A program made the position numbers and the translations under genes. From an uncultured delta proteobacterium (GTDB lineage Bacteria > Desulfobacterota > Binatia > UTPRO1), in NCBI GenBank assembly GCA_963761995.1, contig CAVXIU010000006.1, positions 3,681,684 to 3,745,683 of the forward strand: DNA of 64,000 bases, written 5' to 3'. The notes beneath the pieces were generated by a model. That model saw only the letters and a program-made list of their open reading frames with translations, was not told where the DNA came from and did not search any database. Within the stretch, counting starts at the first letter, position 1, and every line of letters starts with the position of its first letter. Below are positions 38,933-64,000 of this stretch, piece by piece.

Positions 38933-41900
38933 TCACTTGCACTTGATCGTGCCGGGTGGCGCCACGAACGCGCAGGCAGGCGACTGTGGTCCCGGGAAGA
39001 GCGCGTCGCCGCATTGATTGGTGCTCGCGTAGGGCGGATCGAGGATCAGCGTGCCCCGCATGGGCAAGCTCGCCGGTAGCGGATAGCCACCGTTCCGCGC
39101 CTGCACCGAGAACCGGACCTGGCCCGGCACCTTGGTGTTCTTCTTGATGAGGATCTTGGTCACGCCCTCGATGAGCGGGACGCCGCCGCCGAGGTTCTTG
39201 TAGAGGAACGTCGTCCCCTTGCTGTTCGCCTTCCACCCGGCATTCGTCAGCGCGTCGAAGAGACCCGGCGGGATGGCGGCGTCGACGATCGTCGTGCCGG
39301 CGCCGTCGACGAAGATGATGCGCACGCCGTCGCTCGCGGGATCGATCGCCGCCGACGGTACCGTCATGGTGCCCGAGAACTTGAAGCGGTGGTCGCCGAT
39401 CGGCTGCGCCAGCTTCTGCATGCTGAGCTTCGGCTTCACGGCCCGCACGTCGGCGGCGTTGGTGCAGGGATCGCAGGCGTCGCCGAGGCCATCGCCGTCG
39501 CCATCCTCCTGGCCCGGATCGACCACCGTGAGGCACACGTCCTCGAGGTCGCAGGTGCCGTCGCCGTCGCCGTCGGGCTGACCGGTGTCGGCGGGACAGC
39601 CGACGCCGCTTCCAGTGCAGAACTCGGGGACGTCGCAGGTGCCCGCGGTCGGCCGGCACTCGACGCTCGACGATTGCAAGGCGTCGCTCGGGCAGTTGGC
39701 GCCGCCGCTGCAGGTCTCCGCCAGGTCGCAGACGCCGGCCGAGGGACGGCAGGTGACGGCGTTGGTCGCGAACCCGTTCGGCGGACAGACGGACGAGCTG
39801 CCGGTGCAGCTCTCCGCGAGGTCGCAGACGCCCGTCGCCGGGCGGCACGTCACGGCGCTCGACGCGAAGCCGTCGCTCGGGCAGGCGGTCGTGGAGCCGT
39901 CGCAGCTCTCGGCCAGGTCGCAGACGCTCAGCGCCGCGCGACAGACGCTCGAGCTCGACGCCACCGCGTCACTCGGACAGACGTTCGAGCCGCCCGTGCA
40001 CTGCTCGACGGCGTCACATGTCGAGACCGCGGCGCGGCAGACGGTGGACGACGCCGCGAAGCCGTCGCCGGGACAGGCGGCGCTCGACCCGCTGCACTTC
40101 TCGACCGCGTCGCAGGTGGAGACGGCGCCGCGGCAGACCACGGTATTGGCGGCGAAACCGTCGTTCGGACACGTCGCGCTACCGCCGCTGCAGCTCTCGG
40201 CGACGTCGCAGATACCAGTCGCGGCCCGGCACGCCGTCCCGTTCACCACCAAGACGTCGGCCGGACACGACGGGTCGTTGCCGGTGCAGCTCTCGGCCAC
40301 GTCGCAGGAGCCGCCAGCGCCGCGGCAGACGGTCGCCGACGACGCGAACCCGTCCGGGGGGCAGGCGGTGCCGAAACCGGTGCAGGTCTCGGCGACGTCG
40401 CACACGTCGCCCGCGATGCGGCACGGCGTACCGCCGGGCACGACGCCATTCGCCGGACAGTCGCTACTGGAACCGTCGCAACTCTCGACCGCGTCGCAGT
40501 CGTCGATCGCCGGACGGCAGATCGCCGTCGACTTGCCGTCGCTCGGGCAGGCCGCGCCGCCACCGGTGCAGACCTCCCCGTGGTCGCACACGCCGCCCGC
40601 GGGGCGGCATACCGCGCCGTTGGCGGCGAACTGGTTGCTCGGGCAGGCGGCGCTCGAGCCGGTGCAGCTCTCGGCGAGGTCACAGCCGCCCGCAGCCGAG
40701 CGACAGACGGTGGATCCCGACACGAAGCCGTTCGTCGGGCAGGCGCCGCTCGCCCCCGTGCAGGTCTCGGCGACGTCGCAGATCCCGGCCACGGTGCGGC
40801 ACGAGGTGCCGACGGTCACGTACTGACAGCTCGCCGTGCAACACGAGGTCGAGCTGCCGTTGGCCGCGCCCTGATCGCATTGCTCGCCGGCCTCGATTGC
40901 GGCGTTGCCGCAAATGCTCCCCTTGGTGATGACGAGCGTGTCGAACACGGCGTCGTTGTTGTCGATCGACTTCAGGGTGAGCGTGGTGTCGCTGACGATC
41001 CGCACCTCGCTGAACTGGAAGCGCGCGAAGCTGCAGTACTGGCCGTTGACGCCGTTCGAGCAGTTGTTGGCGAGCCAGGGACAGTACTCCTTGGAGTGGA
41101 AGAAGCCCTGGCCGAAGGGGCCGCCGCCGTCGACCTGGGCGGCGCTGTCGAGGCTGGCACCGCCGCCTCCGGTCATGATGTAGCGGGTGGACAGGCCGTC
41201 CGAGCCGCCGGCCCCGCCGATCTGGTAGTGGTCGACGAGCCCCGAGCGCTCGTAGATGTGATCGTGGCCGTCGAAGACGATGTCGACGCCGTGTTGCTCG
41301 AAGATCGGACCCCAGTTGTCGCGCACCGTGTGGTCGCTGCCGATCGAGGCGAAGCCGTTGGCACACGAGTACGGCGTGTGGTGCAGGAACACGAACTTCC
41401 ACTTGCGAGTGGTGGCGGCGAGGTCGGCGGCGAGCCAGCTGTTCTGGAGCGAGACCGCCCCCGGATTGGAATCGAGCACCACGAAGTGGGCGTTGCCGTA
41501 GTCGAACGAGAAGAAGCGCTCCTCCTGGCCCGCCGGCGCGTTCCGCGGCAGCGCGTGCATCTTGATCTCGACCGAGTTCGCCCAGTTACCGGCGCCGACG
41601 TTGTTCAGATCGTGGTTGCCGAGGACCGGAATGAACACCGCGCGCCGCAGGATCTGGTTCTTGAACTGCGAGATGAAGACGTTGTTGTCCCAGTCGGACT
41701 GGGTGCCGTTCTGGTAGGCGTTGTCGCCGACCGTCATCAGGAGCGGCGGGTCGTCGGCGTGGAGGATGTTGCCGAGCTGGCCCTGGGCGCTCGAGCCTTG
41801 GCCCCAGTCGCCGATGACGGTGAAGTAGAGCTCGCTCGGGTCGCTCGTCGCCTTGAAGGTCTGGAAGTAGGTCGTGGCCAGGACCTCGGTGCCGTTGGTG

Positions 41901-46400: not shown

Positions 46401-49400
46401 TCAGTGGACCGGTTCGAGGAGCGTCTTGCCGGTCAACTTCCAGCCCTTGGACTGCTGGATCCAGAGGCCGCGCACCACCCACTCCTCGTCGCCGACGTAC
46501 ACGTGGGTCGTCATGTCTTGCACCGACATGCCGAGGTCGCCGTATGCCTTCAGCGAGACGATGAAGTAGCCGAGACCAGCCTTGGTCTTCATCTGGTAGA
46601 TGCCGCCGCCGGCGCGCGCGCCGCGGTTCTTGTACCGCACGGACTTCACGTTCTGCACCTCGAGCGATCCCCGCACCAACGAGGCACGGAAGATGACCCC
46701 GTCGGCCGCGTCGCGGAGCTCGATCACGAAGTGGTTGTTGATGAAGTCGACCGGCGCGCCAATCGGAGTGATCAGCCGGCCATGGAAGTCGAACATGTCC
46801 TGCTGGGTGCCGTGCCCGAACTTGATGCGGGCCGGGTCGGCGCAGATCGGCTCGTTGCAGTTGTTGAGGCACTCGTCGAGCGGCTGCTGCGGCTTGTCGG
46901 TGCGGCAGCCGCTGATGGTGTTGCCGTCGTCGCACGTCTCCGTGTTGTTGGACTGGACGACGCCGTCGCCGCACCTGGTGCAGTCGAGGCGGCACCCGTT
47001 CACGCTCGGGACGACGTCCGGCGGATCGCAGGTTTCAAAGTCCGGAGCGCCGTTTTGGACCACGAAGTCGCCGCAGTTCGCCCCGATGCAGATGCCGTTG
47101 TTGGGGTGCAGGCAGAGGAAGCCCATCGACTGCGAGTCGCACGAGTCGTCGGTGCAGGGGTTCACGTCGTCGCAATCGACGGGATCCATGCCGACGCAGG
47201 TTCCGAAGCCGTCGGCCTCGTCGAGCTGGGTGCAGAAGCTGCCGTCGTTGCAAGGCGTACCCGCCGGCAGGAACGAGTCGGCCGGGCAGAACTTGTTGCT
47301 GCCGTCGCAGCTCTCTTCCTGATCGGCCGTGCTGGCGGCCGGGCGACAGACCGTCGAGTTCGGCTCGACGGAATCACCCGGGCACGACGGGCCGCCGCCC
47401 GTGCAGCTCTCGGAGATGTCGCACACGCCACCGGAGCCGCGGCAGACGGTCGCGCTCGACTCGAAGGAGTCGGCCGGACAGGCCGGGCCGGTGCCGGTGC
47501 AGTTCTCCGCCACGTCGCAGACGTCGACGACGGACCGACAGACGGTCGCGCTCGGCTCGAAGTCGTTCGCCGGGCAATGCGACGTTGGTGCCGTCGCAGT
47601 TCTCCTCGACGTCGCAGACGCCCGTGGTGGCGCGGCAGAGGGTGGCGCTGCTGGCGCGCGCGTCGGTCGGACAGGCCGCCGTGCTGCCGGTGCAGTTCTC
47701 GGCGATGTCGCAGACGCCCGTCGCCGAGCGGCAGGTCGTCGAGCTCGCCTCGAAGGCATCGGTCGGACAATCGTCGTTGGTGCCGTCGCAATCCTCGTCG
47801 ACGTCGCAGACGTCGGCCGCCGGACGGCAGAGCGCCGTGCTCTTGGCGTCGGTCGGGCAGTTCGCGCCGGACCCGGTGCAGTTGTCGGCCGTGTCACAGA
47901 CGCCGACACTGGCGCGGCAGAGAGTCGTGCTCGGCTCGAAGTCGTCGGTCGGACACGGCGCCGTCGAGCCGGTGCAGTTCTCGGCAACGTCGCAGACGCC
48001 GTCTGGTGGCGCGGCAGACGGTCGCCGCCGACTGGAAGCCGTTGGCCGGGACAATCGTCGTCGGAGCCGTCGCAGCTCTCGACCACGTCGCAGATGCCGG
48101 CCGACGGCCGACAGACCGCCGTGCTCTTGCTGTCGCCCGGGCAGGCTACGCCGGATCCGGTGCAATTCTCGACCAGGTCGCAGACGCCGACCGCACCGCG
48201 GCAGACGGTCGCCGCGCTCTTGAAGCCCTCGGCCGGACAATCATCGTCGGAGCCGTCGCAGCTCTCGACCACGTCGCAGACGCCGCCCGACGGCCGGCAG
48301 ACCGCCGTGCTCTTCGAGTCGCCCGGGCAGGGCGCGGTCGACCCGGTGCAGTTCTCCGCCAGGTCGCAGACGCCAGCCGCGCCGCGGCAGACCGTTGCCG
48401 CCGATTGGAAGGAGTTGGACGGACAGGTGTTGGCAAAGCCGTCGCAGCTCTCGGCGATATCGCAGACGCCGGCGCTCGGACGACAGACCGCCGTGCTCTT
48501 CGCATCGCTCGGGCAGGCCGCACCCGACCCCGTGCAGTTCTCAGAGGTATCGCAGATGCCGACGGAGCCGCGGCAGAGGGTCGCCGAGGACTTGAAGGCG
48601 TCCGCCGGACAATCGTCGTCGGAGCCGTCGCAGGTCTCAGTCAGGTCGCAGACGCCGGCGGAGCCGCGACAGAGCGCGGTGCTCTTGTCGTCGCCGGGAC
48701 AGGCGGCAGCGGAGCCGGTGCAGTTTTCGGTCAGGTCGCAGACGCCCGCCGAGCCGCGGCAGACCGTCGAGCTCGACACGAAGCCGTTCGGGGGACAGGC
48801 GTTGCTCGAGCCGTCGCAGCTCTCGGTAACGTCGCAGATGCCGCCCGTGGGCCGGCAGACGGCCGTGCTCTTGGAATCGCCAGGACACGCTGCACCCGAG
48901 CCGGTGCAGTTCTCGGCGACGTCACAGACGCCGCCCGAGCCGCGGCAGACCGTCGAGGACGACGCGAAGCCGTCCGCGGGACAGTTGTTGCCGACGCCGT
49001 CGCAGCTCTCGGCGACGTCGCAGACGCCGGCCGAGCCGCGGCAGACCGCCGTGCTCTTGCTGTCGCCCGGACACGCCGCGCCAGAGCCCGTGCAATTCTC
49101 CTGGAGATCGCAGACGCCGCCGGAGCCGCGACAGATGGTCGACGCCGAGGCGACGCCGTCGCCCGGGCAGGCCGCCGCGTTGCCTGGACAGTTCTCGACG
49201 ACGTCGCAGACGCCGGCCGAGGCACGACACGGGGTCGCCGCCGAGACGAACGCGTTGGCCGGACAGACCGAGTTCGACCCGTTGCAGTTCTCGGCGGCGT
49301 CGCAGACCCCCGCCGAGGCGCGACACGTGGTCGCGGCCGAGGCGAAGCCGTCGCCCGGACAGGCCGCCCCGCCGCCGCTGCAGTTCTCGGCGACGTCGCA

Positions 49401-50591
49401 GAGGTGACGGCGCCGCGACAGACGGTCGCTGACGACGCGAAGCCGTCGCCCGGACAGACCGTGCTCGAGCCGGTGCAGTTTTCGACGACGTCGCAGACCC
49501 CGCTCGAAGCACGACACGGGGTGGACGACGACGCGAAGCCGTCGTTCGGACAGAGGTTGCCGACACCGTCGCAACTCTCGGCCACGTCACAGATCGCGCC
49601 GCTCGACGGACGACAAACCGCGGTGCTCTTGGCATCGGCCGGACACGCCCCGGTACCCCCGGCGCAGTTTTCCAGCGGGTCGCACACGCCGCCAGACGCG
49701 CGGCACAGCGTCCCCGCCGACGCGAACAGGCAGGTCGAGGTGCAACACCCGCCGGGCGGGTCGCACTGCTCGGCACTCCCATCAGTCCCACTCACGGTAT
49801 CTGTTTGGGAATCGCCGCAGATGGACGTGTAGAATGCAAGGTCGACGTGCGACCGGTTGTTCTCCGTAAAGCCGGTGCCCTGTCGGTGGGCTCGCCGTGG
49901 TGCCAAAGAAGGTATTCGCCGGCGAAAAGGGGCCGCCGATGGCAGTGGCCGCTTCGATCAGGACGTTGACCGAAAAGCTGGCGACGCCCGAACCGACGCG
50001 CCAGAGCGAGTGCACGCCCTGGGCGGTACCGTTGCCCGTCAAGCCTCGGATGTTGGCGCCGGTGAGCGCCTGCGTCGTCGCGTCACTCACCACCGTGCCC
50101 GCGCCGCTGAACGTGAGCGTCACCCGCGTGAAGACCGTGCCGGGTCCGCCGTTGATCATCGCGGTCTGCCCGGTATAGCGGATGGTGGTCGCGGTGTCCG
50201 TCGACCAAATGAACATCTCGGTGCCGCTCGGCTCCGTCCCGACGCTGTTCATCTTGAGGCCGAACGGCAGCGTCGTGAGTCGGTTGATCCCGATGTACAG
50301 ATTCGAGAACGCGCTCGCCGTGCCGGCGCACGAATAGTTGCCGCCGCCGGCGAGCTTCTCCGAGCCGGCGACCGGCAAGCTACAGCTCCACCCCGCGCCC
50401 GGCGCAGTCGTGGGCCCGTTGCTGATGACGATCGCGCTTGCCGGCGCCGCCGCAACCAGCAGTCCGAGGACCGCGAGGGTCGCCATGCTGACCAGAGCCG
50501 AGCCGTGCCGTTTTGCGCCTGCCGGTGTCGCAGTGCCGAACGCACGAGTCTGGGCCGCCCAAATTCTCCGCTGTGGCCGAGCTAACGTCAT
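46401..50591 (-). pseudogene. Decayed paralog of the giant Cys-rich repeat protein, with at least 4 frameshifts.
   Basis: Signal peptide plus a ~230-aa N-terminal domain (frame of 49782..50876 from MTLARPQRR, ATG complement 50589-50591). Repeats continue in the frame of 48731..49906, then 46401..49574, with a middle segment only readable in the 47374..48240 frame. The C-terminal domain and a CDDGN module are retained. Confidence 0.6.
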
Positions 50592-50640: not shown

Positions 50641-50967
50641 TCACCACGACCCGTGCGATCCGTGGCTGCCGTGAGACCCATGGCTGCCGTGCGATCCATG
50701 GCTGCCGTGACTCCCGTGGCTGCCGTGGGACCCGTGGCTGCCGTGCGACCCGTGGCTGCCGTGACTCCCGTGGCTGCCATGCGAGGCATGGGAGAGATGT
50801 TGGGCAAGCAAAATGTTCTCGTTGTTGGGTTCGGAGCGCAGCGCCTGAGCCGCCTCGGACGCGTCGAGTCCGACATCGGGCTTCAGCGCCTGACGCGCCT
50901 CGTCCCGACTGAGAAAATCCACCGGCGTCTTCCGCAGTAACGGCAGCCCCTTCTCTTTGTCGCTCAT
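50641..50967 (-). CDS. Small protein: 62-aa leader followed by (His-Gly-Ser)x15-Trp. Candidate His-Xaa-Ser repeat precursor (HxsA-like) or His-rich metal-binding peptide.
   Basis: A strong SD (GAAGGAG) sits 7 nt upstream of the ATG. The N-terminal half is well composed (MSDKEKGLPLLRKTPVDFLSRDEARQALKPDVGLDASEAAQALR...). It lies 40 bp after the Tat-protein gene and 50 bp before the Cys-rich pseudogene. Confidence 0.65.
   Translation of the reverse strand: MSDKEKGLPLLRKTPVDFLSRDEARQALKPDVGLDASEAAQALRSEPNNENILLAQHLSHASHGSHGSHGSHGSHGSHGSHGSHGSHGSHGSHGSHGSHGSHGSHGSW
50645..50790 (-). repeat. Tandem 18-bp/9-bp coding repeat (cgtggctgccgtg[ac]gacc)x8 encoding (HGS)n.
   Basis: Perfect 9-bp periodicity. 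Reads as SHGSHG... on the minus strand. Confidence 0.8.
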
Positions 50968-51007: not shown

Positions 51008-51595
51008 TTACCGCAACTTGCCGTCGGCCGAGGGGCCGTCCGCCGCCGCGAAGCGACGGACGCGCTCGCGGTGCGGCAGCAGCTCGGCGAACACGCCGTC
51101 CGCTACCTGGGCCTCGTTGGCCGCCACCGCGTGCGCCAGCTCCGCGACCGCCTGCCCGAGGTGCTCCTCGGTCGGGAGGTCTCCGTAGCCCTGATTCATC
51201 ACCACGAGATCGACCCGGCGCGTGTAGACGACGCCCTCGGGGCTCCCGTCGTTCTGGCAGAGATGCACCCGGTGCGAGCGCCCGCGCTCGTTTTGCAGCG
51301 TCACCACCGCCGACCCGTCCTGCACCGACGTGCAGTCGACGAGCCGCCAGCCGTGCGCCACCACGGCGCCGGCGCCGTACGGCGCCAGGAGATCCCAGGG
51401 CGGCGGCGCAGCGGCGAGCCCCGCCGAGTCCGTGCGCGGTGCCAGAGCGTTCGCCCCGTCCCGGTCGCTCGCAGGCTCATCCGTCGGGTCGCCAACAGGC
51501 CGCGTGGCCGCAATCCCGGTCCCCACGGCCCCAACAGCCAATGCCGCAGCCGCACCCACCGCCGCTTTGCCGATCAAATCGCGTCGTGAAAGCAT
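51008..51595 (-). CDS. Tat-signal secreted protein of unknown function.
   Basis: Twin-arginine motif SRRDLIGKAAVGAAAALAVGA. GAAGGGAG RBS. 195 aa with two Cys. Confidence 0.65.
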   Translation of the reverse strand: MLSRRDLIGKAAVGAAAALAVGAVGTGIAATRPVGDPTDEPASDRDGANALAPRTDSAGLAAAPPPWDLLAPYGAGAVVAHGWRLVDCTSVQDGSAVVTLQNERGRSHRVHLCQNDGSPEGVVYTRRVDLVVMNQGYGDLPTEEHLGQAVAELAHAVAANEAQVADGVFAELLPHRERVRRFAAADGPSADGKLR

Positions 51596-52123: not shown

Positions 52124-52600
52124 GTGGCACTCGGTGAGGACGACGTTCGGTCGGAAGACCTCGAATCGCGTCTCGGCGTCTCGCTAGGGCGCGATCACGT
52201 GATGTTCGACGTCGACGAGACGGTCTATCCGCTCGAAGCGATCTACGGGGGAGCATATCTCTTCGTCGACCGATGCTTCGTGTTCCTCTCCCGACCGAGG
52301 CCGCAGGTGGTGAACGTCCGTTTGACGTCGCGTGGGCCGGCGACCTCCGCCGAGCTCGACGCGCTCGCGGGCGAGTTCATGAACGAGATCCTGTCGCAGG
52401 TGACGCGGCTGCGCCTGTCGCAAGCCACCGCTCGCATCCGCGAGTACTATACGGCCGCGGCGTTGCGGGCCGCGGCGTCGGCGCCTTCCGTCGACGATCT
52501 CCTGGCCGAGCTCGACGCGGAGGAGCTCGGGGACGACCCGCTCGAGATCTCGGTTCCCTGGGAAGCGAAGCCCGGCGACAAGGGAAGCGAGCCGAAGTAG
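52124..52600 (+). CDS. Small protein family A, copy 1 (paralog of 62665-63123). Possible HxsD-like accessory or peptide chaperone.
   Basis: GTG start after a GAAAGGAAAG RBS. Conserved core YP.EA.Y.AAY.F.DR..V.L......V..R.......AGEF.NE.L.Q. Confidence 0.55.
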   Translation: MALGEDDVRSEDLESRLGVSLGRDHVMFDVDETVYPLEAIYGGAYLFVDRCFVFLSRPRPQVVNVRLTSRGPATSAELDALAGEFMNEILSQVTRLRLSQATARIREYYTAAALRAAASAPSVDDLLAELDAEELGDDPLEISVPWEAKPGDKGSEPK

Positions 52601-52615
52601 GGCCGCACGTCCCGG

Positions 52616-52861
52616 ATGAGCCAGATCATCTTCGACCGATCGCTCTACACTCCCGAAGCCGTCGAGGCGGCCGCCGCGGCCTACGCCGAGTACGCGGACA
52701 TCACGCTCGAGCGCTCCGGCGACGCGGTGATCGCGACCATCAGCGCCGTCAGCGGCGGTGATCGCGAGACGATCGAGCACTCCTTCTGCAACCACGCGTT
52801 GCAGGAAACGGTCGTGCGGATGCGGCGGGCCGCCGCACCCGAAGCGCCGGAGCGCGTGTAG
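52616..52861 (+). CDS. Small protein family B, copy 1 (paralog of 63120-63366). Possible PqqD-like or other accessory protein.
   Basis: 81 aa. Conserved LYTPEA...A and a single-Cys motif (HSFCNHAL versus EFCNFAL in copy 2). The next gene starts right after the stop (TAGATG). Confidence 0.55.
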   Translation: MSQIIFDRSLYTPEAVEAAAAAYAEYADITLERSGDAVIATISAVSGGDRETIEHSFCNHALQETVVRMRRAAAPEAPERV

Positions 52862-54344
52862 ATGGTCGCCGGCGGAGTAGCGCCTTCGCCCTCGACGGTC
52901 GCGATCGACCGGCTGGGATTTTTTCGTTGGGGACGGATCGCCGAGAAAGTCCTGATCACGACGGATGGCGGCGACTGGGCCTTTCTGACCGAGCCGGAGT
53001 TCGCGCAGCTGCTCGCTGGCGAGATCCTGGAAGACCACCCGCGGTTCGCTGAGCTCCAGGGCGGCGGCTTTCTCCGCACGGGCCTCGATCTCGACGCGCT
53101 CGCGAGCAGGGTCGCACGGCAGCGTGGGCCACGTCGCGCGCGGGCCGGAGCTGCACGTCGTGACGATGAGCCGCCGCGCCGGGCAGGAAGCTCCATCGGC
53201 GGCGCCCGGCGCGCCCGCATGGACCTCGACCGCGAGACGGCCGAGAGGATCGTCGAGGTCGCGCTCCAGAGCAGATCGCCGTCGGTCTCATTCGAGCTGC
53301 AGGCGGCACGCCGGCGAGCCGTTGCTGAACGCCGACGGAGTCCGGCATCTCGTCGAATTCGCGCGGACGACGAACGCACGCGCCGAGGGGAAGACGCTCG
53401 GGTTCACGCTCGTCAGCAACTTGAGCGCCATGACGGCGGAGATGGCGGAGTGGCTGATCGCGAACGAGGTCGCCATCCGGACGTGGCTCGACGGACCGGC
53501 ACGAGCTCCACGAGTGGAACCGGAGATACACGTTGGCGGGAGCGCATGCGGACGTGGTCCGGTGGATCGAGTGGTTCGACCGCCGATACCGCGAGCTCGG
53601 GCTCGATCGCCGACGTCTGGCACGTCGACACAAGGATGACGACGACGCGCCGGACGCTGTCGGCCTGGCGCGAGGTCGTGGACGAGTACGTGGCGCGCGG
53701 GATGCGGTCCATCCAGCTCAGGCCGCTGAGCCCGCTCGGCTTCGACGCCGACGCGTGGCAGACGATCGGGTACACCGTCGAGGAATACCTGGCGTTCTAC
53801 GACCGCGCGTTCGGCTATATTGTTGGAGTTGAATCGCAGCGGGGTGCGCCTCGCCGAGAGGACGGCGTCGGGGTTCCTGAACGGCATCCTGTCCTCCGGG
53901 GATCCCGCCCTGCGGGAGATCCGGTCGCCGTGCTCGGCCGGGACGAGCGAGCTCGCATACGACGTCGATGGGCGGATATTCCCGGGCGACGAGGCGCGGC
54001 GCGTCGACGCGTTCGGGGATCCCATCTTCGCGCTCGGCAACGTGCGGGAGCTCAGGATCGCCGACATCGTCCGGCATCCGACGGCCCGGGCGATTGCGGC
54101 GGCGTCGCTCCTCGACGCGCAGCCGATGTGCGCGGACTGCTGGAACAAGCCGTTCTGCGGCATCTCGCCCGTGTCGACGTACGTCCGGGACGGGGACCTC
54201 TTCGGGCAGCGGCCGCGGTGCTTCGAGTGCAAGGAGCATATGGCGGTCTCCCGCACCCTGTTCGCTCGGCTGGCAAACGAGAGCGACCGGGAGACGAAGG
54301 AGATCCTCGAGCGCTGGACGGCCGGAAGCGGCCGCCCGCGCTAG
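52862..54344 (+). pseudogene. Radical SAM/SPASM maturase, HxsB-like, with an N-terminal KVLITxDxGDW extension. At least 4 frameshifts and the Cx3Cx2C motif is lost.
   Basis: The frame order is 2 -> 0 (FELQ|GEPLLNADG, caused by a 7-bp insertion cacgccg) -> 1 (WLDGPA|ELHEWNRRYTLAG) -> 2 (IADVWHVDTR...YDRAFGYIV) -> 0 (SPASM: SPCSAGTSELAYDVDGRIFPG, CADCWNKPFCG, RPRCFECKE). The expected Cys-motif region reads LHVVTMSRRAGQE. Confidence 0.6.
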
Positions 54345-54345
54345 C

Positions 54346-54440
54346 TCAGAAGGGGGATCCCTCCCCCTTCGCCGCCGCGGCAAAGCCGCGTCGGCTCGTC
54401 CCCCGGCTCGCATTCGCTCGGCCGCGCGCTAACGCGCACG
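54346..54440. repeat. Structured intergenic element, copy 3 of 3.
   Basis: gggggaTCCCtccccc, cgcggcAAAgccgcg and gccgcgcgcTAAcgcgcacgg. About 90% identical to copy 2. Confidence 0.5.
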
Positions 54441-54599
54441 GAGATCGTTGTCGTGGATCCCTCTCCTACTCGATCGGGCCAGTCAGGGGGCCAGCGGGCA
54501 GCGAGAACGCCCGGCCCCCTCCCGTCGTTGAGCAGGCGAAAAATGCCTGGCGAATCGGCGGCCTGATGTGGTAACCCCCCGAGACGGACCGTCGCCCAA

Positions 54600-56478
54600 G
54601 TGAACACGAGCCTCCACTGTCCGACGCCGTCGAGCGGAGAACGCGCGCGACGCCGCGTCCCGGTCGCTGCGATTCGGACCATCGATCTCCGTATCTCGCT
54701 GGTTCGCGGTCCGGCCCGGCTGCCGTGGCGAGGCGGTAGGGGGGCGACCGACGAGCTTTCGCTGAGCGAGGTCCTGGATGGCGCGCGCGCCGTCGCCGGC
54801 CGGCCCGGCGCCTTCCTCGTCGGTGGCGGAGATCCGCTTCGCCGCACCGACCTACCGACCCTGCTCCACGAGCTCGCGCGAGCTCCGGCCCGAGAATCTC
54901 GGCCTCTGCACCGGAGGCGCGGGCGTGACGGGCACGATGGTCGATCGGCTGCGCTCCGTCGGGGTGCAGCGGCTGAGAGTGCCGTTCCACAGTGCACGCC
55001 GGGACGCACACGATTGGCTGGTCGGGCAGCCGGGCGCGCTCGGGACGGCGCTGCGCGCGATCCGTACCTGCGTCGATACCGGGATGCCGGTCGAGGCCGA
55101 GGTCGTCGTCACCCGGCCGACGATGCCGCACCTCGAGGAAACGATCGACGTCCTCACGCGAGTCGGGGTGCGCAAGATCGTCGTTCGACGTCTCGCCACG
55201 GTCGACGTCGGACGGGCCCGAATTCGTCCTGCTCTCGCCGCGCCTGTCGCTGCATCGCCGACGACCTGGAACGCGCGGCGACGACCGCGCTCCAGCGACG
55301 GTCCCGTATCGTGATCCGGGACTTTCCGGTCTGCGCCGCGCCGCGGTTGCGACGGCTCTTCGCCCGCTCCGACGCCGAGCTGTGGCTGACGGCGAACGGT
55401 GCGGTCGATGCCCGCGTCGAAGGCGGCCCGGGGTGCCCGGGCTGTCCCGGTGCGCCGCTCTGCGCCGGAGCGCCGGCGCGACTACGTGGCGCGCTTCGGC
55501 TGGGAAGAGTTCGCCGACCCGGCGCCATGCACGGCGCGCATCGAGGAGAACGTCGCGGCGCAGCAGAGCGTTCGGCCCGCGGGAACGATGGTGCTCTCGT
55601 GGCGCGGGCCGCGCCGCGTACGGTGCGACGCGTGCGCGGATGGCCATTCGGCCACAGGTGGTCACCCGACCGGCGACCATCCGACCGCGGGACCCGAGTC
55701 GACGCGCGCCGTCCGCGCCAGGCTGGTCGAGGCCGCGCGTTTCCGGCCGGCGGTCTTGCGGCTCGTCGGCGCCGAGCTGCTCGCCCATCCGAGCGCGGCT
55801 GCGCTGCTCTTCGACGCGGTCCGGCTCTTCCGGCGCGTCGAATGCGCCGGCGAGGGAAGCGCCATCCTCAAGTGGACCGACGTCGATTTGCGCCGCCTCA
55901 AGGATCTCCCGCGCATCGACGTCGCGTTCTACGGGCCGGACGCCGCGAGCCACGACGCCCACTGCGGAATCGCCGGCTCCTTCGCGGCGACCCTGCGCGG
56001 CGTCGAGCGATTGCGCGAGCAGACGTCGATCGCGGTCGGGGCCTACGCGATCGTCCATGACGCGCGCTCCGTCCCGCTCTTCGCCAACGCCTGGAGCCGC
56101 GGCGAGCTGCCGGGTCATCCACGGTTTCGCCTGGCGGCGGAAGGATCTTCCCTGGACGACGTCGTCGAGTGCGCGCGCCTCCTCCCGCCCGGCGCGGTGC
56201 GGTCGGCATTGTGGGCCGTGCTACCGCACTGCCTGTGCAACGAAGCGGGCCTGGGCTTGGACGAGGGTACTGGCGTCGAGTCCGCGGAGGGCAACGGTCC
56301 GGCGTTCGGCGTCGCCTTCGGGCGACGCGTCGAGTACGCGCCCCGCGGCTCGGATCCGGTCGGCGCCTTCGCAAGCTGCGGCGACGACGGGAATGCATGT
56401 ACCGTGATCGGCTGCCCCGGCACGGCAATCGGATGGCAGCGGAACGCGAGGTCGAAACGATGGATGCAGGACAGCTGA
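54600..56478 (+). pseudogene. Degenerate radical-SAM-like two-domain protein, a paralog of 56460-58335. It lacks the Fe-S Cys triad and has at least 3 frameshifts.
   Basis: The frame order is 0 -> 1 -> 0 -> 1. FLVGGGDPLRRTDLPTLLHELA|RENLGLCTGGAGV...VPFHSARRDAHDWLV aligns with VILSGGEGSIHPKFIDFVRYAREIGYSRVQTVTNGYM...SLHGHTPELHDRL of the next gene. TIDLRISLV occupies the place of CNSRCVFC. Confidence 0.5.
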
Positions 56479-58335
56479 CGGAACGGATGTTGGCGCGCGA
56501 GAGCGTGGCCAACGTCCGGAAGCACTGGGTACGGCTCGTCACGGCGTGCAACAGCCGCTGCGTGTTTTGCCTCGACACGGACACGCCGCGGAACATGTAC
56601 CTCTTGGAGCACGACGTTCACCAGGAGCTCAGGCGCGGACGCGAGGAGCTGAACGCCGACAAGGTGATCCTGTCGGGCGGCGAGGGCTCGATCCATCCGA
56701 AGTTCATCGACTTCGTGCGCTACGCGCGCGAGATCGGCTACAGCCGGGTGCAGACCGTCACCAACGGCTACATGTTCGCGAAGCGGGAGTTCTATCTCAA
56801 CGCCGTCGAAGCCGGGCTCGGCGAGATCACGTTCAGCCTGCACGGCCACACGCCCGAGCTGCACGACCGCCTCACGGGCGTCGAGGGCGCCTTCGACCGG
56901 CTGATGAAGGGCATGATACGCGCCCGCCGCGACGGACGCATCATCGTCAACGTCGACGTCTGCATCAACAAGCAGAACGTGGCGTACATCGACCAGATCG
57001 TCGCGCTCTGCCTTTCGGTGGGCGTCAACGAGTTCGACCTCCTGCACGTCATCCCGCAGGGCGCGGCGTTCGAGAACCGCGACGAGCTCTTCTACGATCC
57101 GGTCGAGCACCTGCCCCGCCTGCAGAAGGTCTTCCGTCTGAACCGCCATCCCAACGTCGTGGTGTGGACGAATCGCTTCCCGGTCGAGTTCCTCGAGGGC
57201 CTGGAAGACCTCATCCAGGATCCGCACAAGATGCTCGACGAGGTGAACGGCCGCCGCTTCCAGGTTCGCAAATACCTCGACGAAGGCGTTCCCCTCGAAT
57301 GCCGGCAGCAGGAGCGGTGCGTGCACTGCTTCATCGAGCCGTTCTGCACCACGGCCGATCGCGTGATCGAGCGCCAGAACCAGGCGAGCTGGGACGTCTG
57401 GTGGATGGGCGCCGCCACCGGCATTGGAAACATGCCTGCGGCGAACGAGCTACCCTTCGGGTGCCGTTCCATCGGCCTCGAGGTCGACGATCTGCCGGAC
57501 GTCGAAGGCCTCGGCGTCCATCCGGACGTCGGCATCTACGTCCGCCCGAAGCGCGCCTCCCGACTGGTCGATCGGGCGCGCGTGCCGAACCGCCTCCTGC
57601 TCGCGCTCCGCGAGCCGGAGCAGCTCGACGTCGTGCTCGGCGGCACGCCGCTTCCCGCGGGGGTCGAGGTCGAGATCGAGCTGAACCAGCGCACGGCCCC
57701 CTGGCTGCTCACGCAGCGCGAGCGCGTGCGGACGTACCTCGACGTGATCCGTCTGCATCAGCCGACCTACGAGTTCCTGAAGGACGCGGTCGCGAACGAC
57801 GTGCGCAATCTGAAGCGCTTCTTCACCGAGCTCGCGCTCCCCATCCGAGCCAGCGGCCTGACCGCGTGCCTCGCCCCGGGGACGCAGCTGGTCGAGGCGC
57901 CCAAGGTGCTCGAGAAGAAGATGTTCGACCCGGAGACCGGTCGCATCGCCATCCGCGAGCTGGCACGGACGCACGTCGTCCACGGCTACCAGGCCAAGTC
58001 GCTCCGCTGCCGCGATTGCGTCGTGACCGCCCGCTGCGAGGGTGCGCACATCAATTTCATCCGCGATCAGGGATTCGCGGAGCTCCAGCCGTTGCGCGAA
58101 GGTGCGTGGGCGGAGAACGCGGCGGCGCAGCTGACAGCACTCCGGCCGACGCCGCTCCCGCGCGTCCGCGACGGTCAGCCACTGCAGCCGGTCGGACCGA
58201 GCCTGCCCGGGCTTCGCGCCGCCGCAAGCGGCCCCGGTCGAGCCGTTGATCGAGTTCGCGCAAAAGAAACGCGAGGAGCGCGAGCGCGCGCGCCAGGAGG
58301 CCGCACAGCGGCGCCAGGTCTCGCTCGAAGGATAA
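56460..58335 (+). CDS. Radical SAM protein (~625 aa) with a Cys-rich auxiliary segment and a long C-terminal extension. One late frameshift at ~58195.
   Basis: Cx3Cx2C in VTACNSRCVFCLD. GGEG, TNGYM and SLHGHTPELHD motifs. Auxiliary Cys in ECRQQERCVHCFIEPFC. The frame changes from 0 to 1 at ctgcccgggcttcgcg (a ccc/ggg run). ATG 56433 is an alternative start. Confidence 0.65.
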
Positions 58336-58344
58336 CGACCGACG

Positions 58345-59382
58345 ATGGCGAACCTCGGCTACCTCCAGCTCACGCGGAACTGCTACCAGAAGTGCCACTT
58401 CTGCAGTAATCCGCCGACCGGCGTGCATCTCGACGAGGCCGAGATGCGCCGCAACATCGATAAGCTCGTCGAGATGGGCTACGACGGCGTGATCCTGACG
58501 GGCGGGGAGCCGAGCACCTCCGAGCTCCTCCTCCCGGCGCTCGCGTACGCGCGCGAGCAAAAGCTCTTCAGCCGCATGATCACCAACGGGCAGAAGCTCG
58601 CCGACAAGGACTTCTTCAAGCGCTGCGTCGACGCCGGTCTCACCCACATCCACGTCTCGCTCCACAGCTACCGGCGCGAGGTCCACGACTTCATCACGCA
58701 ATATCGCGGGGCGTGGGACGTGCTCGTCCGCTGCCTGGAGAACGTCCCGGAGATGGGCATCACCTCCGACATCAACACGGTCATCAACGTCTGGAACTGC
58801 GACCATCTCCACGAGAACGTCCGCTGGATCTGCGAGAACTTCCCGTTCATCCGCCACTTCGTCTGGAACAACATGGACCCCGACGGCAATCGCGCCGAGG
58901 AGAATCCCGACTGCATCCCGCGCCACTACGAGTTCCAGGTGTCGCTCGAGAAGGCGATGGACTACCTCGTGAGCACCGGGCGGAGCTTCCGCGCCGAGCG
59001 GGTCCCGCTCTGCTACATGCGGCGCTACGCGTGGGCCTCGACGGAAGCGCGCAAGATCATCAAGGAGGAGGAGCGCTGCATTCGCTTCCTCGACTTCAAG
59101 GGCTTCATCCACCAGAAGGAGTTCCTGCACGGCAAGGGTGACGCCTGCCAGGCGTGCCGCTTCGACCCGATCTGCGCGGGCATGTTCTCGATGGCGAAGA
59201 GCTACGACGAGCGCGAGCTCTCGCCGATCTTCGACGACCCCACCCCGATGATCGCGAAGGTGCTGAGACGCGAACCGTCGCCGGAGCTCATGGCGCGGCT
59301 CATGGCGCGACGTGGGCGGCGCTCACTGACCGAGCAGCCCTCGCTCGAGCGCCGGCAGCAAGCGATGGAGCGGCCTCTGTAG
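58345..59382 (+). CDS. Radical SAM protein with a C-terminal twitch/SPASM-like Cys cluster. Intact.
   Basis: TRNCYQKCHFC (Cx3Cx2C), GGEPS, TNGQKL, and C-terminal CQACRFDPICAG. 345 aa with no frame breaks. Confidence 0.85.
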   Translation: MANLGYLQLTRNCYQKCHFCSNPPTGVHLDEAEMRRNIDKLVEMGYDGVILTGGEPSTSELLLPALAYAREQKLFSRMITNGQKLADKDFFKRCVDAGLTHIHVSLHSYRREVHDFITQYRGAWDVLVRCLENVPEMGITSDINTVINVWNCDHLHENVRWICENFPFIRHFVWNNMDPDGNRAEENPDCIPRHYEFQVSLEKAMDYLVSTGRSFRAERVPLCYMRRYAWASTEARKIIKEEERCIRFLDFKGFIHQKEFLHGKGDACQACRFDPICAGMFSMAKSYDERELSPIFDDPTPMIAKVLRREPSPELMARLMARRGRRSLTEQPSLERRQQAMERPL

Positions 59383-59386
59383 CGCA

Positions 59387-60790
59387 ATGCCGCGTTTCCT
59401 CTTCATCAATCCGCCGCTCGTCCTCGAGGACGACTTCATCGACTACCCCTTCTTCGCCAATCACGGGTTGCTCGCGTGTGCGGGGTTGGCGGCGCGGTCG
59501 GGTGCGGACGTCGCGGTGCACGACGCGTTCGCGTTGCGCGACTCGGGACGTCACCGCCGCGCCGGCGGGGGATGGGTGCTCGGCGTCGGGCACGACGAGT
59601 TCATCGCGTCGCTGCCGCGCGGCCGCTTCGACGTCGTGGTGCTCGGCGGCCCGGTCTTCCTCCGCATCGAGGCCGCCCATGCGGAGACCCGCGCGCTCAT
59701 CGCCGCCCTCCGCGAGCGATTTCCACGCTCCGTCCTGCTGCTCGCCGACGGCTACGTGGGCGGCCAGCACTACGCCGACTACGACGCCGAGCGGGTCCTC
59801 GCACAGTATCCGGAGTTCGACGCAATTCTGAAATACCCCGGCGAGCGCTTCTTCGCCGAGCCGGAATATCTCGCGACCCTCGGCGACGCGCGCGTCGTGT
59901 TGCGCGAGGCGGAGAGTCGCGGTGCCGATCCGCTCGAGCCGTTCTACTTCCTCGACGGCATCGACGTCGGCAACTTCGATCGCTTCCTCGAGCGCTGCTT
60001 CGGCGACGGGACGTGGCAGAACACGTTCGGCGTCGGCGCGGGGACGCGCTCGTTCGTGACCAGCATCGGCTGCCCGCATCGCTGCATCTTCTGCACGAGC
60101 AACCCGGGCTGGCGACGGACGGGACGCAAGCTCTACCGGCCGATCCCCCTGCCCCGCCTCACGCACTGGGCGTATCTCCTGCAAAACCGTATTCGCCGCG
60201 AAAAAGCTGATCGTGCTGGACGAGATGGTGAACGTCCGGACGGACTTCGAGGCGATGCTCCGCATGCTGAACGAGCTGGACTTCACCTACGATTTCCCGA
60301 ACGGCATGCGCGCGGACCATTTGAGCCGCGAGGCGATCGGCGCTGATGAAAGGACGCGTCGGGATGCTGAGCATCTCGGCGGAGAGCGCGACGCAGGAAG
60401 ATGTGAACGGACCCATCGGCAAGGGGCAGCCGCTCGACGCGATCCGACGCGTCGCGGAATGGTGTCGCGAGCTCGACGTGCCGCTGATGAGCCACTACAT
60501 CATCGGCTTCCCCTGGGAGACGCCGGCGCACGTCACCGGCACGCTCGAGATGGCGTGGGAGCTGTACGAACGCTACGGGGCTTGGCCGTCGATGCAGTTC
60601 GCGACCCCGATTCTCGGCACCGCGCTGCACGAGCAGTGCGTGTCCATGGGTCTGATTCCGCCTGAAGGCATCGACCTCAAGGACGGCGCGCTCTTCCAGC
60701 ACCGCCCGTGCTTCGATCCGCCCGGCCTGTCCCCCGGGGTACCTCGAGAAGGCACGCGCCGCGTTCGACATGAAGATCGCGGCCCGTGAG
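59387..60790 (+). CDS. B12-binding-domain radical SAM protein (class B-like), with at least 3 frameshifts.
   Basis: N-terminal cobalamin-binding-like fold (MPRFLFINPPLV...). SFVTSIGCPHRCIFCTSNPGW (Cx3Cx2C). It continues in frame 0 (KLIVLDEMVNVRTDFEAMLRMLNELDFTYDFPNGMRADHLS), then frame 1 (LSISAESATQEDVNGPIGKG...IIGFPWETPAHV), then frame 2 (YLEKARAAFDMKIAAREAQQ). The true stop is unclear. Confidence 0.6.
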
Positions 60791-61705
60791 GCGCAGCAAG
60801 CTCATCATGAACATCACCTACAAGTGCGCCAACCGCTGCGTTTTCTGCGCCACCGGCGATCGCGTGTCGGCCGCGCTCGCGTGGGACAAGATCGACGAGA
60901 TCCTCCGGCAGCACCGCGAGCAGGGCACGGACCAGCTCGACATCGACGGCGGCGAGCCGACGACGCACCCGCGCCTGACGGATGCCATCGAGCTCGCGCG
61001 CGAGCTCGGCTACCGCTCGATCAACCTGACGACCAACGGCCGCCTGCTGCGCGACCGGGATCTCACCGAGCGCCTCGTGAACAGCGGCATCACGCATCTC
61101 CTGATCTCGCTCCACGGCGCCACCGCCGAGGTGCACGAGGCGGCGACGGACGCGCCGGGCAGCTTCGCCGAGACGATCGCCGGCATCGACAACGTCATGG
61201 CTCTCCGGCCGGCCCACGTGGAGACCGGCATCAACGTCACGATCGTCCGCTCCAACGTCGACCATCTCATGGCGCTCACCGCGCTCGCGGTGGCGAAGGG
61301 CGTTCGTCGAAGATCAACTTCCAGTTCACGACGCCGTTCGGCCGCGCCTGGGAGGACGTGGTGCCTCCGCTCGAGGAGGCGGCGAACGCGGTCATGCGCG
61401 TCATCGACCGCTACGCGGACGAGATCCAGATCCACGTCATCAACGCGCAGTTCTGCGTCTTCCCGGGGTACGAGCGGTACGTCGTCGGCGATCTGCAGAA
61501 GATGGGTCGCACGATGGTCTTCGCCGCGGATCCCCGCTTTCCCGAGCAGGTCAACCTCTACGAGTGGCTGGGAGCGCGGCGGGAGAAGCAGGCCGTCTGC
61601 GCGGCATGCCCGTGGACGACGGTGTGCGAGGGCTTCCAGGTGTTCCGCCAGGAGAAGCCCGACATGCGGGTCGAACGGAGCCGGCCCTTGGTGGCGACCG
61701 CATGA
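60786..61705 (+). CDS. Small radical SAM protein with a twitch/SPASM-like C-terminus. One frameshift at ~61300.
   Basis: NITYKCANRCVFCATGD, DGGEPT and TTNGRLL motifs. The frame changes from 0 to 2 after LAVAKGV. C-terminal CAACPWTTVCEGF. Its stop overlaps the next ATG as ATGA. Confidence 0.65.
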
Positions 61706-62659
61706 CCGCGACCGTCGTGAAGCTCGGCGACGAGTGGTTCGAGTACGCCGACGTCCTGGTCGACGTGATGATCGGCTACGCGTGCAACGTGCAGTGCGAC
61801 TACTGCTCGATCACGGACGAGATGCGGAAGGAGAACATGGCGACGCTGCCCGTCATGGCGGCGCTCGCCGATGCGCGCCGGCGGGGGGCGACGAAGGTCG
61901 CGTTCGGCGGCGGCGAGCCCACCATCCGGCGGAGCCTCCTGCCGCTCGTGCGCTGGTGCCGCGACCGCGGCTGGCGCTCCATCAAGATCCCGTCGAACGG
62001 GTTGATGTACTCGTATCAATCGTATCGCGCAGGAAGCGTGCGACGCGGGGATAACCGATTTCCACATCTCGTTCATGGCGCACACCGACGAGCTCTACGC
62101 TCGCATCATGGGGAGACCGGACGCGCTGTCGCTGGTGACCGAGGGAGTGCGCAATCTGCAGGCGCTCGGCCGCAGGCCGGTCGGCGATCTCATCATCAAG
62201 CACGACACGTGGATGCATCTCGCCGACATCGTCGAGCACTGGGCGGGTTTCGGCATCGACACCTTCAACCTCTGGCTGGTGTCGTTGAGCGACCGCAACC
62301 GCGACAATCTCGAGTCGCTGCCGATGGTCTCGGAGATGCGTGACGGGATCGAGGCCGCGTTCGAGCGCGGCAAGCGGCTTGGCGTCACCGTTCGCTCCCG
62401 GCACATCCCGCGCTGCATGCTGCCGGGGTACGAGGACCACGTCGTCGACCTGCGCGAGGACAAGGTGCTCGTCGTGACGCCGCGCGCGACGTTCGCGCTC
62501 TGGGAGTCGAAGATCTCGCCGAACACCTATGCCGAGAAATGCAACGGGTGCCGGTACCAACACGGCGTCTGCCTCGGGCTCCGTCGCGACTATCTGGAGC
62601 GCTGGGGCGACGCGGAGCTCCGGCCCACCTACGACTCCGCGGCGGCTCCGGCGGCGTGA
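61702..62659 (+). CDS. Small radical SAM protein with a SPASM-like C-terminus. One frameshift at ~62015.
   Basis: MIGYACNVQCDYCS (Cx3Cx2C), GGGEPT, and PSNGLM| then EACDAGITDFHISFMAHTDELYARIMG in frame 2. C-terminal CNGCRYQHGVC. Confidence 0.65.
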
Positions 62660-62664
62660 GGACG

Positions 62665-63123
62665 ATGACACGCGTGCAAATCGAGACCTTGGATCCAGCA
62701 ACGGCGACCCTGACGCTCTCGCTCGACGTCGGCCTGTACCCGCGCGACGTTCTGTACGCCGCCGCGTACGTGTTCCTGGACCGCGCCTACGTGCTGCTCG
62801 ACCGCCAGGACTCGCGGTTCATCGTGCACTTCCGCGCCAAGCGCCCCCTCGAGGAGGCGACGTTCCGCGCCATGGCGGGCGAGTTCGAGAACGAGCTCCT
62901 CGCGCAGGCGCTGCGCCATCAAGTCGTCGACGCGAACCAGCGCATCATCGAGGACGTCGTCGCGGTCGCCATCGCGGGCGCGTCGGTCAGCGACGAACCC
63001 GAGGCGGGTTCCGCGGCGGAGCATCCTCCGCTCATCGACCCGACAGACCCGGAGGACGGCTTCCTCGGCGACCCGCTCGGCATCGCCCGACCATTCGAGC
63101 CGGAGAAGCAAGGTACCGAATGA
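62665..63123 (+). CDS. Small protein family A, copy 2.
   Basis: 152 aa. Homologous to 52124-52600 (LYPRDVLYAAAYVFLDRAYVLLDR...MAGEFENELLAQALR). Begins 6 nt after the upstream stop. Confidence 0.6.
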   Translation: MTRVQIETLDPATATLTLSLDVGLYPRDVLYAAAYVFLDRAYVLLDRQDSRFIVHFRAKRPLEEATFRAMAGEFENELLAQALRHQVVDANQRIIEDVVAVAIAGASVSDEPEAGSAAEHPPLIDPTDPEDGFLGDPLGIARPFEPEKQGTE

Positions 63124-63366
63124 CGTCGAGCGATACGGACGTAGTGACGATCCGCCTCCATCGGATGCTGTACACGGAAGAAGCAATCGCCGAGGCCGCG
63201 ACCACGTTCGCCGGACTGGCATCGTTCGCCGTCCGTGCCGACGGCGAGCACCACGTCGTGGACGTCAGCGCGATCACGCGCGACGTCGACGGTGACGTGG
63301 TCGCCGAGTTCTGCAATTTCGCGCTCGCGAACTCGGCGCGCGCTGAGCGGAGCGGTCATGCTTGAC
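63120..63366 (+). CDS. Small protein family B, copy 2.
   Basis: 81 aa. ATGA overlap with family A copy 2. LYTEEAIAEAATTFAG...AEFCNFAL aligns with copy 1. Confidence 0.6.
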
Positions 63367-64000
63367 GCCGAGCTCCTGCCCCACGGGCGCCAGGTCGACT
63401 TCACGGATCTCTCCCCGGAGCGCTGGAAGCCGGGCTTCGCGACGCCCTTCAACCAGCGGATGATTCGCGGCAAGGTCCTCATCACGAACGACTTCGGGGA
63501 CTGGCTGCTCCTCACCCCCGACGATTTCCGATCCTTCGTCGAGGGACGGCCAGCAGCCCGGCGAGCCGCTCTACGAAAAGCTCCGCACGGCGAACTTCAT
63601 CGCGCAGGCGGTCGACGTACGGGCGCAGGCGGAGCGCTGGCGACGGAAGAAGCAGTACCTGTTCCACGGCCCCACCCTGCACGGCCTCGTGCTGACGCAT
63701 CGCTGCAACCACGGCTGCCAGTACTGCCACAGCTCGGTCGTCGGGATGGAGCGGACCGACACCGACATGTCGTTCGAGGTAGCGGAGGGCGCGGTCGACG
63801 TGGCGTTCCAGTCGACCGCATGGGCCATCACGATCGAGTTCCAGGGCGGCGAGCCGACCGCGAACTGGGAGGTGCTGCGGCACGTCGTCGAGTACGCGAC
63901 CCGGAAGAACCAGGACGTCGGAAAGATCCTCTCGTTCGCGCTCGTCACGAATCTCTCGCTGATGGACGACGAGCGGCTCGAGTTTCTCCTCGCCCACAAG
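63358..64000 (+). CDS. HxsB-like radical SAM maturase, 5' part (runs off the window). One frameshift at ~63545.
   Basis: Its ATG overlaps the B2 stop by 8 nt. The N-terminal extension KVLITNDFGDWLLLTPDDFRSFVEG parallels the 52862 gene. The frame then shifts to ...LVLTHRCNHGCQYCHSS... (Cx3Cx2C), FQGGEPT and LVTNLS. Confidence 0.65.
   Translation, partial: MLDAELLPHGRQVDFTDLSPERWKPGFATPFNQRMIRGKVLITNDFGDWLLLTPDDFRSFVEGRPAARRAALRKAPHGELHRAGGRRTGAGGALATEEAVPVPRPHPARPRADASLQPRLPVLPQLGRRDGADRHRHVVRGSGGRGRRGVPVDRMGHHDRVPGRRADRELGGAAARRRVRDPEEPGRRKDPLVRARHESLADGRRAARVSPRPQ

Follow-up and report, generated by a model that had tools for sequence, protein, structure and literature searches.

Paired HxsD and HxsD-like proteins in a duplicated His-Xaa-Ser module of an uncultured delta proteobacterium

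What role could be played by two small proteins whose genes lie side by side, twice over, directly ahead of genes for radical S-adenosylmethionine (radical-SAM) peptide maturases? The question is raised by a 64,000-nucleotide stretch of an uncultured delta proteobacterium (assembly GCA_963761995.1, contig CAVXIU010000006.1, positions 3,681,684 to 3,745,683; hereafter the window, with coordinates counted from its first letter), in which a first-pass annotation had singled out the pair, proteins A and B, as two novel families. We find that profile matches place A in the HxsD family (TIGR03976/PF27806) and B in the curated HxsD-like family NF038315. The analogy with a characterized His-Xaa-Ser (HXS) system makes it rather likely, in our judgment, that both are non-catalytic adaptor subunits, probably acting together, for the radical-SAM machinery that modifies the His-Gly-Ser (HGS) repeat peptide HxsA4.

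The two gene pairs and their families

Because a G+C content of about 70% yields many spurious open reading frames in the window, real frames were picked by their third-position GC. On the plus strand, A1 (52124-52600, 158 amino acids, with a GTG start and GAAAGGAAAG just upstream) is followed after a gap of 15 nucleotides by B1 (52616-52861, 81 amino acids), whose TAG stop abuts, with zero overlap, the ATG of the next gene, HxsB1, at 52862. In the second copy the genes are tighter: A2 (62665-63123, 152 amino acids) overlaps B2 (63120-63365, 81 amino acids) by 4 nucleotides (ATGA), and B2 overlaps HxsB2, whose ATG lies at 63358, by 8. The paired small genes are thus present where they had been annotated, apart from the end of B2, which falls at 63365 and not 63366; both pairs do lie directly upstream of HxsB-type genes, but the stop/start overlap reported for each holds for B2 only. 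All four reading frames are intact, each in a frame backed by third-position GC, and chunked tblastn against orthologs found no frame disruption in any of them. By BLASTP, A1 and A2 share 34% identity over 141 amino acids (E 2e-18) and B1 and B2 31% over 62 (E 2e-7), similarities well above chance, so that A1/A2 and B1/B2 are true paralog pairs, as had been proposed. Orthologs of A1 are likewise 158 amino acids long, those of B1 occur at 70-90% identity in many soil contigs, and those of B2 share contigs with B1 orthologs; a look-up of the exact B2 sequence returned no public record. The 528-bp divergent intergenic region ahead of A1 yielded nothing meaningful when scanned with Rfam and for promoters and terminators.

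Against the HxsD model TIGR03976 (cutoff 50), a comparison that the first-pass annotation had itself proposed, A2 scores 59.4 bits and passes; A1 reaches 44.4 bits (E 1.6e-11), under the cutoff, and a protein of the same sequence as A1 on another public contig carries a precomputed match to PF27806 (HxsD). Every homolog of A2 has PF27806, and many are listed as "His-Xaa-Ser system protein HxsD". B1 and B2 both pass NF038315, "HxsD-like protein", with 59.2 and 60.4 bits against a cutoff of 41, and B homologs bear that name in, for example, Candidatus Binatia. One could still envision A and B as two families without known relatives, because a local copy of Pfam-A gave zero matches for A1, B1, A2 and B2 at E <= 10. 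However, that copy apparently lacks PF27806, A2, B1 and B2 pass NCBIfam equivalog models, PF27806 is precomputed on A homologs, and close homologs of both proteins are already named HxsD or HxsD-like in NCBI and JGI records, which leaves that alternative practically no probability. The discovery of new families therefore does not stand, since models, matches and public names already cover both; the further guess that A and B might be HxsD-like accessory proteins was the right one.

The pairing recurs in other genomes. The order A-B-HxsB was found in all nine loci of a genome collection, the record titles of which read Deltaproteobacteria, Binatia, Polyangiaceae, Oligoflexia, Thermodesulfobacteriota or unclassified bacterium. 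Among 62 metagenome loci recruited with a 14-sequence sub-alignment of B, and hence through an FCN(H/F/L) motif that represents a single part of the B family, A lies immediately upstream of B in 49 of the 49 with enough sequence, and B is directly followed by HxsB in 50 of 51, all but locus L039. The predicted cassette of A, B and an HxsB-like gene, and its co-occurrence with radical-SAM genes, are thereby borne out.

Intact orthologous regions were available from an 81.9-kb JGI contig (loci L001 and L006) and from a 1.47-Mb contig of a metagenome-assembled genome (L002 and L004). On their minus strand lie genes for a Cys-rich repeat protein, HxsA4 and a 200-amino-acid protein whose N-terminus is twin-arginine-like; the plus strand carries, in order, HxsD1, HxsD-like1, HxsB1, a halogenase, four radical-SAM proteins (611, 630, 345 and 770 amino acids), a further one of 319, HxsD2, HxsD-like2, HxsB2 and a 431-amino-acid protein with a hydroxylase domain. 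The window has the same order minus the halogenase gene, and its end falls inside HxsB2. The pairs had been taken to mark both ends of the radical-SAM array; there are indeed two copies, but the second is not the end of the array, as in L006 it starts a second module that runs on past the point where the window stops. In relatives the two A-B-HxsB modules lie about 30 kb (L002/L004) or about 5 kb (L013) apart and are therefore separable units.

Conserved residues, predicted fold and kinship of A and B

In an alignment of 61 A-type sequences, Y31, Y35, F37, D39, R40 and the run G72-E73-F74-x-N76-E77-x-L79-x-Q81 are invariant, and the A motifs noticed in the first reading (Y..AAY.F.DR and AGEF.NE.L.Q) are therefore real. 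Y11, A15, F57, C58, N59 and L62 are invariant across 101 B-type sequences, which upholds the B motifs noticed there at this depth. A profile search of 1.84 billion representatives collected 771 clusters (50% identity) of the B family at E <= 1e-3, nearly all of them stand-alone proteins of 66-90 amino acids; in 144 diverse representatives the Tyr is kept in 143, the Asn in 137 and the Leu in 138, and the Cys position is occupied by Cys in 74, Ala in 36 and Ser in 12. We thus rejected the Cys as a functional residue; on these alignments it is a feature of a clade, not a requirement of the family.

A differs from B in its tail. The core of A1 (approximately residues 26-118) is followed by an acidic tail ending in DPLEISVPWE, and that of A2 (residues 4-108) by an acidic, disordered tail with DPLGIARPFEPE at its end. 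Within the tail D136, P143, E145 and P146 are invariant, the terminal motif is common to A1 and A2, and the A profile match extends into the tail (to at least position 145 of the hidden Markov model) in 49 of 49 metagenomic A genes. This part lies outside the 90-position HxsD model, the match of which spans residues 22-107 of A2.

The AlphaFold2 model of B1 (predicted local distance difference test score, pLDDT, 92) has the topology b-a-b-b-a, with a strand at residues 2-7, a helix at 13-22, two strands at 27-34 and 37-45 and a second helix at 50-73. That of A2 keeps this order of elements, adds a strand at the N-terminus and has a second helix that is far longer (64-108); 10-residue blocks over residues 11-100 average above 90, and residues 111-122 fall below 50. 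The two models also agree in where the invariant residues fall, the Tyr after the first core strand and just ahead of helix 1, the Asn within helix 2. BLASTP detects no similarity between A and B; nonetheless, A2 cross-matches NF038315 (E 1.9e-4), B1 and B2 cross-match TIGR03976 (E about 0.01), and hhalign places 66 columns of the two family alignments in register (E 9e-4), with a probability of only 23%, which is low because both alignments are shallow and low in diversity. From these profile matches and models we conclude that A and B are distant homologs, that is, ancient paralogs sharing a predicted small cytosolic alpha/beta (b-a-b-b-a) domain. HxsB1 and HxsB2 are 37% identical, a divergence similar to that within A (34%) and within B (31%); the distance separating A from B is far larger. 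Most simply, HxsD would have been duplicated in tandem long ago to give A and B, and the A-B-HxsB triad would later have been duplicated en bloc.

The predicted fold also bears on two other proposals for the pair. Recognition elements (RREs) of the PqqD type (PF05402), which belong to ribosomally synthesized and post-translationally modified peptide (RiPP) systems, are, like A and B, small accessory proteins encoded beside radical SAM/SPASM peptide maturases, and a role in presenting the peptide is conceivable for A and B. The LYTPEA segment of B had been likened to the PqqD-type region, and one could imagine B, perhaps A as well, as a PqqD-type homolog that binds the HxsA4 leader through it. 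The LY-P-E likeness is superficial, and B1 has a weak trace to MftB2, its sole one of this kind in NCBIfam (E 0.14, 12 bits against a cutoff of 62); leader binding would also be conceivable for a protein with a fold other than that of PqqD. In contrast, at E <= 10 none of the four proteins matches any Pfam family, and hence not PF05402, PqqD models are absent from their NCBIfam output at the same threshold, and profile searches against PDB sequences found no relatives. The confidently predicted b-a-b-b-a sandwich is not the winged helix-turn-helix of an RRE, with its three strands and three helices. In SPASM RiPP maturases the RRE usually sits in the N-terminal region ahead of the radical-SAM core, and HxsB carries an N-terminal domain of its own, of about 100 amino acids, before that core. 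By sequence and by predicted fold, A and B are thus not PqqD/RRE-like, and we regard a PqqD-type homolog as very improbable.

Alternatively, A, B or both could be extra precursor peptides or leader-like substrates of the radical-SAM array, as the first reading had also allowed. Both are small, the disordered tail of A carries a conserved short motif, and the radical-SAM enzymes of the cluster are far more numerous than one peptide would seem to require. Under such circumstances one would look for a repeat or core-like region, but neither protein has one; both have globular cores predicted with confidence, the many clusters of the B family conserve structural residues and not a variable core, and the cluster already has its own HGS precursor, one that scores above the HxsA4 cutoff. 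We therefore consider a substrate role to be extremely improbable, and return to the reading of A and B as accessory subunits.

The HxsB genes and a proposed role for the pair

The gene that follows each pair is of the HxsB type, but the two copies have taken different courses. HxsB2 (63358-64000, plus strand) is the first part of a genuine HxsB, a radical SAM/SPASM maturase, and runs off the window; it shows 84-90% tblastn identity to its ortholog in L006 (L006:10239-11759, 506 amino acids), which passes TIGR03978 with 507 bits against a cutoff of 370. HxsB1 (52862-54344, plus strand, in seven frame segments) is HxsB-like: its intact ortholog (L001:4091-5569, 492 amino acids) scores 347 bits on the same model, below the cutoff, and has no match to Pfam Radical_SAM. 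Alignment of HxsB1 orthologs, including that of L001 and L002:10291-11772, reveals that they have lost the CxxxCxxC motif and retained the SPASM Cys residues; at the motif site (approximately 53150-53230) HxsB1 of the window reads GPELHVVTMSRRAGQEAPSAAPGAP. Of the 47 metagenomic HxsB genes found behind an A-B pair, 25 have lost the motif and 22 keep it. In five compact loci, L012 (at about 5529), L063, L068, L071 and L072, the gene next after HxsB encodes an HGS-repeat peptide with QW or SW at its end, and in all five the motif is intact. From its sequence HxsB1 looks like a conserved, catalytically dead HxsB, likely a scaffold. It resembles pseudo-SAM/SPASM proteins such as TIGR04347 in keeping the radical SAM/SPASM architecture without CxxxCxxC and in being conserved across many genomes; it differs in being a diverged HxsB paralog, by its TIGR03978 score, and not a member of TIGR04347.

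An HXS system, with its +8 Da modification, has only just been shown to act against phage, in Escherichia coli, where the gene order is hxsD-hxsB-hxsC-hxsA (Li et al., Nat Commun 2026, PMC13128918). In that system HxsD is needed both for processing of HxsA and for defence: with hxsD deleted, or with Y23 (Y23A) or D61/R65 of its LLNDYxLRE motif mutated, cleavage of HxsA is impaired and defence is lost; HxsD is recovered in pull-downs with Strep-HxsC; and in the authors' AlphaFold 3 and docking model of an HxsC-HxsD complex, an HxsA peptide occupies the active site of HxsC (PMC13128918). Protein A is like E. coli HxsD in its family (TIGR03976/PF27806), its small size, its lack of a signal peptide and its position ahead of hxsB. 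A keeps the Tyr (Y23) of the LYW motif, as Y25 within GLYP in A2 and within TVYP in A1, with Trp replaced by Pro; the G-E-F-x-N-E-x-L-x-Q stretch of A, which may correspond to the LLNDYxLRE helix motif, has an invariant Asn. Like the E. coli system, the locus combines HxsD with a His-Xaa-Ser repeat protein and HxsB/HxsC-type radical-SAM enzymes: HxsB follows after B, HxsA4 is present, and the HxsC-like genes score below cutoff.

The differences from the E. coli system are nonetheless considerable. HxsD is here always trailed by a second, HxsD-like protein (B), and A carries a 45-amino-acid acidic tail with the conserved end DPLxIxxP(W/F)E; the module is duplicated, giving the order D-D'-B-(C-like)n-D-D'-B as compared to D-B-C-A. 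The repeat protein is a 108-amino-acid leader-plus-repeat HxsA4 rather than a peptidoglycan-binding effector with about five repeats, there are at least five HxsC-like enzymes, and orthologous loci add genes for an alpha-ketoglutarate HExxH (aKG-HExxH) hydroxylase and for a protein of the flavin halogenase family. The organism belongs to a soil lineage outside Pseudomonadota, the phylum that holds 99.7% of HXS systems, more than 99.8% of which have exactly four proteins (PMC13128918). The single HxsB and single HxsC passing their models that make up a canonical system were not found, as one HxsB ortholog passes and the other falls short, and no HxsC score exceeds 99 bits (cutoff 267.9). The HxsA4 peptide gives 18.1 bits on the canonical HxsA model TIGR03979 (cutoff 121.65). 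None of the components matched an Hxs-related model in PADLOC 2023, whose only hits were generic viperin (pVip) models on radical-SAM proteins and one weak PDC-M02B trace. The NCBIfam subtype models fit better: B1 and B2 clear the cutoff of NF038315 and the HGS peptide that of NF038313, and NF038332 (HxsC4) is the best match of several radical-SAM genes, but none of those in the window reaches its cutoff (top score 118 bits against 500). By these models the locus is a catalogued His-Xaa-Ser subtype, the variant features of which are the HxsD/HxsD-like pair, the duplicated module and an HxsB1 without its radical-SAM site. Our literature search found no paper using the names HxsA4, HxsC4, HxsD-like or HxsA2.

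We thus favour the reading in which A and B are non-catalytic adaptor subunits. That they act together is suggested by their strict adjacency, by the overlapping or abutting stop and start codons that run from A2 or B1 through HxsB, and by a natural fusion: HSP99225.1 (P0438), from another phylum (Candidatus Dormibacteraeota), carries in one reading frame a B-like domain (residues 1-74), a domain like that of the neighbouring protein X, and the start of an A-like domain. Under this model A and B would probably form a hetero-complex, with their expression translationally coupled to that of HxsB, and would hold HxsB and the HxsC-like enzymes in a productive complex or present the HxsA4 peptide to them. 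The module exists in two diverged copies, of which the first HxsB is likely a scaffold and the second would be the catalyst. By analogy with E. coli, the partner of the pair could be HxsB or an HxsC-like enzyme, and the pair may contact the peptide. A more specific version, possible but doubtful, has HxsD and HxsD-like as an obligate heterodimeric adaptor, perhaps together with X, forming a recognition or scaffold module of non-PqqD fold that, in the soil lineage, would use the dead HxsB1 as a platform from which the HGS peptide is passed to the HxsC-like enzymes.

Several observations weigh against an adaptor role. The partner demonstrated for E. coli HxsD is HxsC and not HxsB (PMC13128918), whereas in this locus the coupling is to HxsB; all HxsC-like genes of the window fall far short of the HxsC cutoff; and frameshifts in the radical-SAM genes, if real, would make the cluster inactive in this organism. 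To these are added the shortfall of A1 on the HxsD model, the low hhalign probability for A and B, and the recruitment of metagenome loci through a single motif of B.

By this locus and its relatives, a large and mostly soil-borne branch of these systems always uses two HxsD-fold proteins instead of one and presumably targets a short leader-plus-repeat peptide, not a peptidoglycan-binding effector; in many of its members, one HxsB has turned into a protein without a radical-SAM cluster site. The locus supplies natural variants for dissecting what HxsD does.

The radical-SAM array and neighbouring genes

Between the two modules lie five further radical-SAM genes, all on the plus strand: an HxsC-like gene (54609-56478; ortholog 611 amino acids; four frame changes), an HxsC/HxsC4-like gene (56433-58332; ortholog 630 amino acids), an intact HxsC-like gene of 345 amino acids (58345-59382), a two-domain gene (59387-61705; ortholog 770 amino acids; five frame changes) and an HxsC4-like gene (61702-62659; ortholog 319 amino acids; one frame change). 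The 630-amino-acid type scores 91 bits on NF038332 and 83 on TIGR03977, both sub-cutoff, and is 85% identical to its L006 ortholog; the 345-amino-acid protein reaches 98.6 bits on TIGR03977, also under the cutoff, with 97% identity to its L006 ortholog. The 770-amino-acid protein (L006:6243-8555 in the relative) joins an N-terminal radical-SAM-like part to a C-terminal HxsC4-like radical-SAM domain, and the middle of the window copy (60346-60789) gives weak HpnJ/AprD4-type matches.

Compared with intact orthologs, these genes and the two HxsB genes hold about 18 frame changes (HxsB1, six; the 611, 630, 770 and 319 types, four, one, five and one; HxsB2, one, near 63552). So many changes over some 11 kb, together with the loss of the radical-SAM cysteines from HxsB1, could suggest that the cluster is decaying in this organism and that A and B are leftovers without present function. 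However, amino-acid identity to orthologs is about 70-90% both before and after most shifts, and third-position GC remains high, the pattern of assembly indels and not of old pseudogenes, so the frame changes are probably assembly errors. A1, B1, A2, B2 and the 345-amino-acid radical-SAM gene are intact, and the motif loss in HxsB1 is a conserved state rather than decay because it is common to 25 of 47 related loci and to intact orthologs. We consider decay improbable and retain the adaptor reading.

HxsA4, the presumed substrate, is encoded on the minus strand (50641-50967, 108 amino acids) and scores 120 bits on NF038313 (cutoff 55). It consists of a conserved leader, 91% identical to that of L001, one HAS followed by 14 HGS repeats, and a final Trp. 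Across HxsA4 peptides the leader is highly conserved, the number of HGS repeats varies and the C-terminal Trp (SW or QW) is invariant; L057 carries two copies (8 and 2613).

The N-terminus of protein X (51008-51595, minus strand, 195 amino acids) is twin-arginine-like, with SRRDLI ahead of a hydrophobic stretch; the protein matched no Pfam family and adjoins the cluster in L001, L002, L008 and L012. The X-like domain of HSP99225.1 is 38% identical to it (E 3e-21), and the colinear B-X-A layout recurs in L078 (L078:8130-8938); the mature domain of X is the part fused between the HxsD-like and HxsD domains in both.

Relatives carry, between HxsB1 and the next radical-SAM gene, a gene for a 549-amino-acid flavoprotein of the Trp_halogenase family (PF04820, E 4e-109; L001:5570-7219 and L002:11773-13428), which is absent from the window (54345-54608) and present only as a remnant in L008. 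After HxsB2 they encode the 431-amino-acid protein with an aKG-HExxH peptide beta-hydroxylase domain (L006:11756-13051 and L004:11756-13051; TIGR04267, 89.5 bits), past which lie an HxsC4-like radical-SAM gene (562) on the minus strand and then a radical-SAM-methyltransferase fusion. On the far side of HxsA4, an ortholog of the Cys-rich repeat protein gives a sub-threshold 18 bits (cutoff 20.8) on a model of myxobacterial cysteine-rich acidic repeats. In the window such very large proteins, with repeats of the form CRxSxGxCDxxExC, are encoded beside the cluster at 46401-49906 (minus strand) and as paralogs at 25689-27983 (plus strand) and 39587-41014 (minus strand).

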